From Ardenticatenaceae bacterium (GTDB lineage Bacteria > Chloroflexota > Anaerolineae > Ardenticatenales > Ardenticatenaceae), in the NCBI GenBank assembly GCA_015491235.1, contig WFWG01000353.1, positions 1,342 to 65,341 on the forward strand: a stretch of DNA of 64,000 nucleotides, written 5' to 3'. The notes beneath the pieces were generated by a model. The model made no database searches and was not told the origin of the DNA. It was given only the letters and a program-made list of their open reading frames with translations. A program made the position numbers and the translations under genes. The number at the start of each line of letters is the position of its first letter. The stretch's first letter is position 1. Below, in pieces: positions 20,701 through 22,910 of the stretch.

Positions 20701-21257
20701 ACCCGGAGGACCACGAGCGGCCTGTGGCCCGCTTCACCTTCCCGCGCCAGCCGGACCGCCAGCGCCTCTGCCTGAGTGATTACTTCATGCTGGCCGAGGA
20801 AGGGCGGGACGTGGTGGCCCTTCAGGTCGTCACCGCCGGACCGGAGGCCACCCGCCGAATCGAAATCCTTCAAGCGGCTGGCGAGTACACCGAGGCCTAC
20901 TTCATCAACGGCTTCGCCGACCAACTCGCCGAAGGGCTGGCCGAGTGGACCAACCGCCTCATCCGCCGCGAGCTGAACCTGCCGTCCGAGCGGGGGCTGC
21001 GCTACTCGTGGGGCTACCCGGCCTGCCCCGACCTGGAACAACAGGCCGACGTGCTGCGCCTGCTGGGCGCCAAGCGCATCGGCGTGCGCCTCTCCAGCGG
21101 CTACCAGCTTATTCCCGAACAGAGCACCGCCGCACTGGTCGTCCACCACCCGGCAGCGATCTACTTCTCCACCGGCGTGGAGCGCCGGCGCCAAGAAGAG
21201 GCTGTGGAGGAGGTGTTGGGACGTCTCGACCTGAAATTAAGAAAGGGCGGTGACTAA
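17715..21257 (+). CDS. metH: cobalamin-dependent methionine synthase
   Basis: 1180 aa with all modules: Hcy-binding (GGCCGTTPDH), pterin-binding, B12-binding (DVHDIGKN) and a C-terminal AdoMet activation domain. Confidence 0.95.
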   Translation: MSVKNRATPYLEALRHRAIVYDGAMGTSIQKYNLSAGDFGGAQYAGCNDYLCITRPDVVEAIHRSYLDVGADVIETNTFRSNRITLSEYGLHDRVLEINEAAARLARRLADEYSTPEKPRFVAGSIGPSGKLPSSNEPSLSDVTYADLVEVFKEQATGLLLGGVDVLLIETSQDILEVKAAIEGLKRAMAETGIRAAIQAQVTLDTNGRMLLGTDIAAVLAILEPLGVDAIGLNCSTGPDYMREPIRYLTSHTRLPVSAIPNAGLPINVDGQAVYPMQPEPMAEMLLEFVREFGCNIIGGCCGTTPDHIRLLVEGVQGVNPWTRRPAEIDTRPRVASAMRAVELVQEPPPTLVGERVNSQGSRKVKELLLEGDYDAIVEVAHGQVAGGAHLLDVCVALTEQPDEAARMRRLVKLLSLSVEAPLVFDSTEVDVIQTALETYPGRGIVNSINLESGREKADAVLALVKQHGAAVIALAIDEEGMAHTAERKLAVARRIYEMATQEHGLPPEALIFDVLTFPVTTGQPELRRAAIETLEGVRLVKENLPGALTLLGISNVSFGLKPSARAVINSVFLHHAVEAGLDLALVNPKHITPYAEIPAEQRELIDDLLFDRRDDALARVITYFEKHATQAQARQEDDLTEGMSVEEKLYWHIVHRKKEGVEALVDAAVAAHDPVWVLNNILLPAMKEVGDKFGAGELILPFVLQSAEVMKKAVARLETYLERVEGTSKGTVVLATVFGDVHDIGKNLVGTILSNNGYRVIDLGKQVPVNTIIDAALEHNATAIGLSALLVSTSKQMPICVQELHKRGLNIPVLIGGAAINRRFGYRILFMEDGQPYPGGVFYCQDAFEGLAVMDKLVSEEREAFVAQVTEEARRTLEADQARRKPQQAPETTVRVVPPAPDTPTPPFWGTRVVPREEIDIHEVISYFDLDTLYRLHWGGRGKRGEEWEELVRTVFEPTLRRLEAELAETGWLSFGVIYGYFPAAADGDDLIIFDPEDHERPVARFTFPRQPDRQRLCLSDYFMLAEEGRDVVALQVVTAGPEATRRIEILQAAGEYTEAYFINGFADQLAEGLAEWTNRLIRRELNLPSERGLRYSWGYPACPDLEQQADVLRLLGAKRIGVRLSSGYQLIPEQSTAALVVHHPAAIYFSTGVERRRQEEAVEEVLGRLDLKLRKGGD

Positions 21258-22390
21258 TGAGAGTTTACATGCGAGCGTTCGGGCCTATTGCTCACGCTGA
21301 TATCGAATTGGGCGATTTAACAGTGCTGGTCGGCCCCCAGGCGACAGGAAAGAGCATTTTTCTGGCTACGTTCAAGTTGCTCCATGATGCCGGATTTGTG
21401 GCCCATCGCCTCAAGGCGTTCGATCTCGTCTGGGAGGACGATGTGACCCGCTTCCTCGACCTGTACTTCGGCGAAGGGCTTGGAGGAATATGGCAAGAAA
21501 ACAGCACTGTGTCTGTTAACGGCAAAACTATCTCGCCTGAAAGCTTCTTGGCATCGTCGGAGAAAAAGGAGCGCGTGTTTTACATCCCCGCTCAGCGAGT
21601 TCTTGTGTTGCGTGATGGGTTGACGCGCCCGTTCGGCGAATACCGAGTAGAAGACCCCTTTGTTGTACGCCAGTTCAGCGATGTACTTCACCAATTGGTG
21701 CAAGCGGAATTTTCACGGCACAACCTTCTTTTTCCTCAACCGGGACGCTTAAAAGAGGCATTTCGGGACCTTCTTGACAGGTACATATTCCGCGGCTTTA
21801 CGTTGCAAGCCGATCGTAAGTGGGGACCCCGTCGGTTAGTGCTAGTCCAAGGCGACGGAGACGCAAGACTCCCCTTCATGGTTTGGTCAGCAGGCCAAAG
21901 AGAGTTCGTCCCGCTTTTGCTGGGACTCTATTGGCTCATGCCAGCAGGTCGTGTCTCTCGTCGAAAACCTGTTGAATGGATCATTGTCGAAGAACCAGAG
22001 ATGGGGCTTCACCCCCGCGCTATACATGGCGTGATGATGCTTCTTCTGGAACTCCTCCGTCGAGGATATCGCGTACTGCTTTCCACGCACTCATTGGCGG
22101 TGCTCGACATTGTGTGGGCATTTCAAGTTTTCAAGCGGTATCAAGATGAGAAGGCTGTTTTAGAGCTTGGGGGCTGGCCTAACCGTGCCGAATATTGGGA
22201 GCTTGCCCGTTCTGCGTTGGCAAGGACGTATAGAGTCTTTTATTTTCGCCCGGAAGGGGATGTTGTGGACATATCGAGCCTTGACCCCAGCGATGAGAAC
22301 ATCCACGTAGCCGGCTGGGGCGGGTTGAGCGAATTCAGCGGTTATGTGGCCGATTTGGTGGCCAAAGCCATCGAGCGACATGCCGCATAG
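21257..22390 (+). CDS. ABC/SMC-type ATPase of the AAA_21/AAA_15 class (defence-system-like)
   Basis: 377 aa: Walker A GPQATGKS, signature-like WSAGQRE, Walker B WIIVEEPEMGLHP and H-loop LLSTHS. G+C is lower than the flanks. The ATG overlaps the metH TAA (TAATG). Confidence 0.75.
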   Translation: MRVYMRAFGPIAHADIELGDLTVLVGPQATGKSIFLATFKLLHDAGFVAHRLKAFDLVWEDDVTRFLDLYFGEGLGGIWQENSTVSVNGKTISPESFLASSEKKERVFYIPAQRVLVLRDGLTRPFGEYRVEDPFVVRQFSDVLHQLVQAEFSRHNLLFPQPGRLKEAFRDLLDRYIFRGFTLQADRKWGPRRLVLVQGDGDARLPFMVWSAGQREFVPLLLGLYWLMPAGRVSRRKPVEWIIVEEPEMGLHPRAIHGVMMLLLELLRRGYRVLLSTHSLAVLDIVWAFQVFKRYQDEKAVLELGGWPNRAEYWELARSALARTYRVFYFRPEGDVVDISSLDPSDENIHVAGWGGLSEFSGYVADLVAKAIERHAA

Positions 22391-22409
22391 GTGCATTGGG
22401 AGAACACAA

Positions 22410-22910
22410 ATGGCCTTCTGTAACGAGATAGCCGCTTGGTCTCGATCGCTTTCGAGGGGATACAACAGAACGCTCTCTTTAAATTGCCAAAGTGGCTTGC
22501 AAGCTGTGGCGCAAAGGCACAAAGGACAAAATGGGTGCATTCGATGTGGTAACACCCGTTCTTTCCAGTTAAGCAGTGTGTGTTTGGATAGAGACTTGCG
22601 GCCTCTTTTCCCTCAGGAAGAGCGGTGGGACTATGGGATTGGCGTTGAAGATACCGGCGGAAACCTGGTGCGAGTTGTCTGGATCGAAGTCCACCCGGCT
22701 TATCCAAAGGAAGTCATAAAGATGTTGAACAAACTCGAATGGCTAAGAGACCTCAAAGCGAAATACCAGCGGTGGTCACGTCACCACCACGAGTATTATT
22801 GGGCCGTTCCGCCGGGAAGCGGTGTATACATTCCCAAACACGTGCCTCAGTACAAGAAGTTGAGGAAATCTCTACTCAAAGGCCCGCAAAAAGTCGTAAA
22901 CGTGTGTTGA
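22410..22910 (+). CDS. hypothetical partner protein of the ATPase (possible PD-(D/E)XK-like core)
   Basis: Same strand and same low G+C as the ATPase. Candidate starts are ATG 22380 (overlapping the ATPase stop) or ATG 22410. Contains CIRCGN and DYGIGVEDTGGNLVRVVWIEVH. I recognise no family. Confidence 0.5.
   Translation: MAFCNEIAAWSRSLSRGYNRTLSLNCQSGLQAVAQRHKGQNGCIRCGNTRSFQLSSVCLDRDLRPLFPQEERWDYGIGVEDTGGNLVRVVWIEVHPAYPKEVIKMLNKLEWLRDLKAKYQRWSRHHHEYYWAVPPGSGVYIPKHVPQYKKLRKSLLKGPQKVVNVC

Follow-up and report, generated by a model that had tools for sequence, protein, structure and literature searches.

Is the small, low-G+C gene pair that follows metH in an uncultured Ardenticatenaceae genome a new kind of anti-phage system, or is it a copy of something already on record? 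The question arises from a 64,000-nucleotide stretch of contig WFWG01000353.1 (assembly GCA_015491235.1), referred to here as the window, in which two co-oriented genes, one for an ATP-binding cassette (ABC) type ATPase (gene 1) and one for a small partner protein (gene 2), sit between metH and an rmlC-like gene. The original prediction, made from the letters of the sequence alone, took the two for a foreign cassette and a candidate defence pair, and suggested that the pairing might be undescribed. Judged from its two protein sequences, the pair belongs to PDC-M56, a phage-defence candidate (PDC) of PADLOC-DB v2. The pairing is already catalogued and its architectural class has been published. 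The reading favoured here, with moderate confidence, is that the cassette represents a horizontally acquired copy of the PDC-M56 operon, in which an OLD-type ABC ATPase would control a predicted restriction-endonuclease-like (REase-like) nuclease effector.

The assignment involves both proteins and their arrangement. The ATPase aligns with the PDC-M56A model (PDLC04710) over residues 2-373, corresponding to positions 3-379 of the 382 in the model, with an expect value (E) of 8.7e-138 and 457 bits. The partner has the PDC-M56B model (PDLC04711) as its sole PADLOC family match, with E 1.6e-25 for the 166-aa protein and 2.3e-25 for the 188-aa open reading frame (ORF), and this alignment covers residues 22-162 and model positions 18-148 of 151. 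The genes are adjacent, in the A-then-B order, both on the forward strand and separated by a 19-nt spacer. The models are also specific: all 71 partner homologues match PDC-M56B only and all 16 ATPase homologues match PDC-M56A. PDC-M56 is one of the 145 untested candidates reported by Payne et al. 2024 (bioRxiv 10.1101/2024.01.29.577857), is listed in the supplement of that work as CAS_00181 (FAM_00005>>FAM_02395) and derives from genes found inside BREX, DISARM or type I restriction-modification (RM) systems.

With both genes strongly matching a dedicated pair of models, with the candidate listed in that supplement and with the class of OLD-ABC ATPase plus REase dyads already published (PMC12839542), it is extremely unlikely that the pairing constitutes a previously undescribed, novel defence family. 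This is so even though no sequence relative of the partner turned up in Pfam, NCBIfam or the PDB, whether the protein was searched as a single sequence or as a profile, and no literature text naming PDC-M56 was found. The earlier statement that the partner matches no family consequently stands for Pfam and falls with PADLOC, and the suggestion of an undescribed pairing is withdrawn. An apparently novel pair is thereby recognised as one already catalogued, and a false claim of novelty is avoided.

Across genomes the pair forms a strict operon. Synteny and context were followed in a sample of 80 loci fetched from species genomes, and in 76 of these a partner homologue lies directly downstream of the ATPase gene on the same strand, as was anticipated for homologues of a genuine partner of this ATPase clade. 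The four loci outside the rule comprise a contig end (L027), a broken ATPase gene (L019) and two that are truly without a partner (L023 and L024). The genes are tightly spaced, with a 4-nt overlap of start and stop in 39 of 68 loci and a distance of -20 to +30 nt in 62 of 68. Moreover, the pairwise identities of the two proteins diverge together (Mantel r 0.646, a value reached by none of 999 permutations), with the partner evolving faster than the ATPase (mean identity 37% versus 52%).

For the partner, a word-indexed search with the single sequence returned 2 proteins and one with an alignment built from the loci returned 650, and an exhaustive profile search gave 1,262 clusters at 50% identity, nearly all of them stand-alone proteins of 145-165 aa. 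Two proteins of a different build were seen as well. P0247, a metagenomic protein of 366 aa, is an in-frame fusion of the C-terminal half of the ATPase to a full partner domain (aa 212-366), and P0301 resembles a frameshifted ATPase-partner hybrid.

The cassette has been acquired horizontally. The pair has a G+C of 0.524, and no other stretch of 1654 bp in the window is as low, the mean being 0.628 with a standard deviation of 0.039. The G+C at third codon positions (GC3) is 0.57 in gene 1 and 0.55 in gene 2 against 0.74-0.84 in neighbouring genes. The local counts on which the foreign character had first been proposed (29/60 within the pair and 44/60 within metH) are exact. Database relatives of the ATPase number at least 4,573 at E <= 1e-10, and of 185,579 species genomes at least 535 (about 0.3%) carry it, at around 50% identity and in some 12 phyla. 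The carriers include Chloroflexota, Armatimonadota, Acidobacteriota, Verrucomicrobiota, Planctomycetota, Proteobacteria, Myxococcota, Spirochaetia and Bacteroidota, among others. One copy resides on a mobilizable plasmid of 99.8 kb in Opitutaceae bacterium TAV5 (CP007054.1), and no copy of the pair was found in the phage collection. On the TAV5 plasmid the partner gene (L093:8162-8659) comes right after the ATPase gene and is absent from the PLSDB gene table.

Gene 1 encodes a compact OLD-family ABC ATPase in which every motif for ATP binding and hydrolysis is intact. The protein scores 65.6 bits against Pfam AAA_21 (cut-off 27) and 41.3 bits against AAA_15 (cut-off 32.1), and among solved structures the nearest in sequence is the OLD-family endonuclease 6p74 (E 7e-6), which matches through the C-terminal ATPase half only. 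The motif set that had been read from the sequence was located in full, comprising Walker A, signature, Walker B with its catalytic glutamate and H-loop, and a Q-loop was found in addition. The core residues of all these motifs do not vary among 16 aligned homologues with identities of 50-80% (Table 1).

For gene 2 the ORF runs from 22344 to 22910 on the forward strand and offers starts at 22344 (188 aa), 22380 (176 aa) and 22410 (166 aa). The true start is read as 22410 because the N-terminus conserved in the family (M-T/A-F) begins there, because a GGGAGA Shine-Dalgarno sequence sits 6 nt upstream and because the indels that distinguish close relatives, among them a 3-nt indel (GCA) within the intergenic spacer, fall only in two short spacers. 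Of the two starts first considered, the downstream one, placed 20 nt after the gene 1 stop, is therefore upheld, with a spacer of 19 nt, and the one overlapping that stop is set aside.

The partner does contain the strings first picked out in it, namely CIRCGN, DYGIGVEDTGGNLVRVVWIEVH and KMLNKLEWLRDL. Because the cysteines of CIRCGN lack conservation, they carry no functional weight, and a zinc-binding role for the partner cysteines was rejected. Conservation falls elsewhere: S56, W73, D74, E93, H95, K108 and W131 are invariant across 71 genome-derived partner sequences, with D60, R72, W91 and W111 likewise free of variation in the database set. A Pfam scan of the 71 homologues gave scattered noise only, and neither the window protein nor 70 homologues has a Pfam match to HNH, TOPRIM/DUF4435, RloB or DUF4276, which agrees with the exclusion of these families at the outset. 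A weak match to the PHROGs family phrog_5429 'DNA repair protein' (E 0.0038) was discounted, and a C-reactive protein match in the PDB (E 0.6), which emerged from the sequence and profile searches with the partner, is spurious.

Table 1. Coordinates of the metH junction, the two cassette genes and their conserved elements (positions of the window; residue numbers of the respective protein)
Feature	Position	Strand	Basis
metH/gene 1 junction TAATG (metH stop TAA and ATPase ATG sharing one base)	21255-21259	+	sequence read
Gene 1, PDC-M56A, compact OLD/AAA_21-type ABC ATPase, 377 aa	21257..22390	+	PADLOC, Pfam
Walker A GPQATGKS, aa 26-33	21332..21355	+	all eight residues invariant
Q-loop IPAQRV, aa 110-115	21584..21601	+	P111, Q113, R114, V115 invariant
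ABC signature-like WSAGQRE, aa 210-216	21884..21904	+	W210, S211, G213, Q214, R215, E216 invariant
Walker B and D-loop WIIVEEPEMGLHP, aa 241-253	21977..22015	+	W241, E245, E246, E248, M249, G250, L251, H252, P253 invariant
H-loop LLSTHS, aa 274-279	22076..22093	+	S276, T277, H278 invariant
Intergenic spacer, 19 nt	22391..22409	+	Shine-Dalgarno GGGAGA at 22398-22403
Gene 2, PDC-M56B, 166 aa, predicted restriction-endonuclease-like (PD-(D/E)xK) fold	22410..22910	+	PADLOC, models
D74, start of predicted strand beta-2 ('PD' position)	22629..22631	+	invariant; alignments, model
E93-V-H95, end of predicted strand beta-3 ('(D/E)xK' position, His for Lys)	22686..22694	+	invariant; alignments, model
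K108, following helix, candidate relocated catalytic Lys	22731..22733	+	invariant in 71 sequences, at least 90% in database set

The partner is likely to have a restriction-endonuclease-like fold, a prediction that is supported reproducibly, with borderline statistics. The AlphaFold model of the window protein (model 1) has a predicted local distance difference test score (pLDDT) of 91.8 and a predicted template modelling score (pTM) of 0.89, and its core is made up of alpha(2-15), beta(52-58), beta(75-81), beta(86-94), alpha(101-117) and beta(127-132). Within this core D74 opens the second strand and E93-x-H95 closes the third, with the 19-residue spacing of a PD...(D/E)xK motif. A second model, of homologue P0130 (27% identical), reaches a pLDDT of 94.7, and in both models the order of secondary structure fits an alpha-beta-beta-beta-alpha-beta core. 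The PD-(D/E)XK-like core with His in place of Lys, as it had been proposed from the sequence, thus fits two independent structure models and the pattern of conservation.

Foldseek comparison of model 1 with the PDB gave no significant match. The best of the weak ones is the Avs3 nuclease domain (E 0.026), and further weak matches are to BstEII, EcoT38I, Bse634I, PaqCI, Cdn1, Nt.BspD6I, Mus81 and TnsA. Model 2 matches Cdn1 (E 1.1e-3, probability 1.00, root-mean-square deviation 3.8 A over 92 columns), Card1 (1.9e-3) and Avs3 (5.3e-3), and then NucS, MspJI, Cap4, Nt.BspD6I, Mus81, Avs4, BamHI and XisH. In a viral fold library the partner has no significant match, the weak ones being mostly to uncharacterised proteins and to a few endonucleases.

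REase-fold nucleases dominate the PDB matches, and the partner is a putative nuclease. The canonical (D/E)-x-K motif is not present as such: D74 and E93 are correctly placed, position 95 is an invariant His, and the motif is a variant at best. A different reading takes the partner for an adaptor or sensor whose REase fold is catalytically dead and which binds DNA or a ligand, with any effect coming from the ATPase or from an unlinked effector. The loss of the canonical Lys would be in keeping with this, as would the weak fold matches and the frequency of inactive REase domains in defence helicases (PMC12839542). What makes a dead domain unlikely is the strict invariance of D74, E93 and H95, and the near invariance of K108, across about 12 phyla and in spite of a mean identity of 37%, an active-site-like pattern; moreover, no other effector gene is conserved beside the pair. 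A site that contains His and Lys could also support metal-independent RNA cleavage.

The defence link is independently supported by the embedding of the pair in BREX and DISARM loci. Two lineages of Acidobacteriota carry it inside a DISARM-like operon with the order SNF2 helicase, MmeI/Eco57I-type methyltransferase, pair and DEAD helicase with an MZB/DUF1998 domain. In locus L030 the pair is placed between the BREX genes for PglX (E 0) and PglZ (E 1e-247), the same PglZ is found downstream in L054, and L011 has a type IIG RM enzyme upstream. Immediate neighbours match PglX in about 4 of 71 cases and PglZ in 4 of 68, and other neighbours match models for DrmMI, DrmA, type IIG RM, HNH, mad3, HEC-01A, DruE and other PDCs. 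BREX- or DISARM-like surroundings are in this way a feature of a minority of the loci, and DISARM as the general context was rejected, since it is common to only about 5 of the 80. More broadly, a 2026 survey of BREX loci found OLD-ABC ATPases paired with HNH, PD-(D/E)XK or PIN nucleases inside BREX in 594 taxa (PMC12839542).

In L023 (1951-9923), one of the two loci that are truly without a partner, a PDC-M56A-type ATPase (3226-4395) stands without an M56B gene. A second AAA_21 ATPase comes before it, a 1229-aa helicase and an MZB/DUF1998 protein come after it, and a DrmMI-like methyltransferase is found upstream. Here the ATPase may work with another effector, in DISARM-like surroundings.

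The same embedding, together with a published proposal of backup effectors (PMC12839542), could mean that the pair is a non-autonomous accessory of BREX, DISARM or RM, for example one that senses their inhibition, and the window has no such partner system, so that its solo copy would be inert or decaying. Such dependence is unlikely given that most loci are solo, that neither window gene is broken or lacks a conserved residue, and that the genes are kept at 98.5-99.5% identity in several related metagenome-assembled genomes (MAGs) with indels in the spacers only. PARIS, the closest precedent, works autonomously (PMC11464382).

A function outside defence has to be considered as well, the pair being then either a selfish addiction module of the toxin-antitoxin kind or a niche DNA-repair combination of ATPase and nuclease. 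Many loci lack defence neighbours, one copy is on a plasmid, the partner shows the weak phrog 'DNA repair protein' match (E 0.0038) and the ATPases of the RecF/RecN/SMC type share the fold. The patchy spread over about 0.3% of species genomes, combined with similarity across phyla, argues against housekeeping repair, and the repeated same-strand embedding inside BREX and DISARM operons likewise speaks for defence. Matches to RecN and UvrA are negligible (E 0.24-0.34). A non-defence function is hence distinctly improbable.

In the favoured reading, that of a PDC-M56 operon with an ATPase-controlled nuclease, the mechanism can be outlined from PARIS, Septu and HEC-01/02/03, and what is said of nuclease activity, of a complex between the two proteins, of the trigger and of anti-phage function is here all inferred by analogy. 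An oligomer of the ATPase would hold or gate the small putative nuclease, a stand-alone protein of about 155-165 aa. The ATPase would sense an infection cue, which might be a shift in nucleotide pools or a protein of the phage, for instance one that inhibits BREX, DISARM or restriction, and would then license the nuclease to cut nucleic acid, with the result that the phage is stopped or the infected cell aborted. Since the pair recurs inside BREX and DISARM, a phage anti-restriction protein is a plausible, if speculative, cue, as Ocr is with PARIS.

A bolder version of this scheme holds that PDC-M56B is a new catalytic variant of the REase fold, with a D...E-x-H motif and a helix-borne Lys, that might cut RNA or tRNA instead of DNA and would be held by a minimal 377-aa ATPase watching for phage inhibitors of BREX, DISARM or restriction, the whole being an autonomous, mechanistically distinct and functional system. 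This can be put forward tentatively, and it is doubtful that all of it will hold.

Several points weigh against the favoured reading. The fold matches are borderline, with no PDB match at E <= 1e-3 and template modelling (TM) scores of about 0.3-0.36, and the replacement of Lys by His could mean that the domain is inactive or uses a different chemistry. D74, E93, H95 and K108 are grouped as a candidate site by their conservation and by their place along the predicted secondary structure. About 85% of the 80 loci, for instance in Chondromyces, have no adjacent defence gene, and a PADLOC scan of the window ORFs found no BREX, DISARM or RM genes. It is also uncommon for a defence system to have its start codon overlapping the stop codon of a core metabolic gene, without a separate promoter-like site. 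No experimental test of PDC-M56 anti-phage activity was found in the literature, and other PDC candidates have failed when tested (PDC-M63 and PDC-S04, for example, and four of eight in one study); PDC-M05, PDC-S05 and PDC-S70 were protective in published tests.

The copy in this genome stands alone, inserted immediately downstream of metH. The overlap of the ATPase start with the metH stop, already remarked on in the original prediction, is as described, and the TAATG junction is kept in five related contigs (L081 and L083-L086). No promoter-like site was found between metH and the pair, which is probably co-transcribed with metH. The whole block of metH, pair and rmlC-like gene is kept at 98.5-99.5% identity in several related MAGs. 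In contig L083 (GCA_015484815.1) two nucleotides (TT) are missing close to the 3' end of metH, at about 9980 (about 21237 in the window), relative to the window and the four other contigs. The metH product there has an altered C-terminus and 1178 aa rather than 1180, through either a genuine polymorphism or an error of assembly.

In agreement with the first inspection, no integrase was found among its called neighbours and the repeat search found no repeats bounding it. A 45-nt direct repeat of 71% identity links 21439-21483 in the ATPase gene with 23037-23081 in the rmlC-like gene. Both copies lie inside coding regions and encode an F-G-E-G-(L/F)-G peptide, and the repeat is probably due to chance. 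The rmlC-like gene was considered as a third member of the cassette and rejected, being absent from all 80 other loci and having a host-like GC3 of 0.81. A tRNA-SeC gene (Rfam, 73.1 bits) occupies 23925-24020, 1015 nt downstream of the pair, so that its position was correctly noted at the outset. An association with the cassette does not follow, and use of the tRNA as an integration site was rejected, as an rmlC-like gene of host composition intervenes and a sister genome keeps the cassette without that tRNA context. About 200 nt upstream of the tRNA gene, at 23691-23718, is a near-consensus sigma-70 promoter-like site (TTGACA-16-TACAAT, 11 of 12 positions).

Synteny with the sister MAG GCA_026992505.1 (L081) stops at 23433/23434, exactly after the rmlC-like gene, which marks a rearrangement breakpoint next to the cassette. 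Beyond it the sister MAG has genes for a dynamin-like GTPase, a cupin and UvrB followed by three Uma2 genes, and the window has tRNA-SeC and 3HCDH.

Further observations concern other parts of the window. About 6 kb upstream of the pair is a low-G+C islet (14382-15458) with two toxin-antitoxin-like pairs, the first consisting of a HicB-like gene (14382-14597) with HicA just downstream and the second of a DUF2281 gene (14890-15099) and a PemK/MazF-like toxin gene (15099-15458), with Pfam labels taken from the 99.5%-identical contig L083. One of the 47 window ORFs scanned matches the PADLOC models for PDC-S70 (best E 6.7e-30), a candidate reported to protect E. coli against T4, T5 and T7, and other ORFs weakly match the 'Phospholipase effector', CARF3 and SduA models. 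A 631-aa ORF on the reverse strand (27044-28939) is situated in a stretch of extreme AT skew (+0.28 to +0.47) at a G+C of about 0.66. A 143-aa ORF on the forward strand (9788-10219) has a GC3 of only 0.32, where window genes typically have 0.75-0.85, and may be spurious or foreign.

To the catalogue entry for PDC-M56 the present analysis adds a fold assignment for the partner, whose fold and mechanism had not been described, with candidate catalytic residues, figures for operon coupling and co-divergence, the phyletic breadth of the family and an independent confirmation of its embedding in BREX and DISARM. Together, the hypothesis on fold and active site and the operon statistics make PDC-M56 a well-defined experimental target. 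If the candidate were validated, REase-like would become the fourth nuclease type in the theme of ABC ATPase plus nuclease, alongside TOPRIM, HNH and PIN/NERD, and the PDC-M56 ATPase, which is unusually small, would offer a tractable sensor for study.

Among known systems the nearest is PDC-M56 itself, since the window proteins match its two hidden Markov models (A over the full length, B nearly so) in the same order, on the same strand and in adjacency. Structurally the two are alike, and the window copy differs in standing alone after metH, in an uncultured Chloroflexota-like genome, rather than being embedded in BREX, DISARM or RM. PARIS, with its ABC ATPase AriA and TOPRIM nuclease AriB, resembles the pair in consisting of two genes for an OLD-type ABC ATPase and a separate nuclease. 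After PDC-M56A, the PADLOC family that gene 1 matches best is AriA (E 3.8e-18), through the C-terminal half (aa 168-284) only. PARIS is likewise found embedded in BREX (PMC12839542), and it serves as the mechanistic template, in which a sensor or scaffold sets a nuclease free. In contrast to AriB, the window partner has no TOPRIM/DUF4435 match. The likeness is limited to the ATPase core, and gene 1 is much shorter, with 377 aa against the 53-55 kDa reported for AriA.

Septu (PtuA and the HNH protein PtuB) and HEC-01/02/03 (an ABC ATPase with a TOPRIM, NERD or PIN protein, respectively) also combine an AAA_21 ATPase with a small nuclease. The HEC systems were found through the same approach of guilt by embedding, and the majority were protective when tested. 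Unlike PtuB, neither the window partner nor any of 70 homologues has an HNH match in Pfam or PADLOC, and unlike the HEC effectors the window partner is not TOPRIM, NERD or PIN by Pfam and PADLOC and has no HEC-02B match. HEC-01A and HEC-02A match gene 1 partially (E 3e-16 and 1e-7, the latter over aa 242-283 only), and the ATPase clade is distinct from those of Septu and HEC, with PDC-M56A alone matching at E < 1e-20. Gabija, composed of the ATPase-TOPRIM protein GajA and the UvrD-like helicase GajB, differs too: the GajA match is weak and partial (E 2e-8), and the window pair has neither a TOPRIM domain nor an adjacent helicase gene.

For the partner, the best structural matches are the REase-fold domains of Card1, Cdn1, Cap4 and Avs3/Avs4, with probabilities of 0.96-1.00 for Cdn1, Card1 and Avs3. 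In these proteins the domain is a nuclease that is switched on by a linked sensor, a mode of control similar to that predicted here. The resemblance comes at an identity of 14-18%, and the partner motif reads D...ExH...K in contrast to the canonical D...(D/E)xK. Moreover, whereas their nuclease is fused to its sensor, be it CARF, SAVED or STAND, the putative nuclease of PDC-M56 is a separate protein that is paired with an ABC ATPase.

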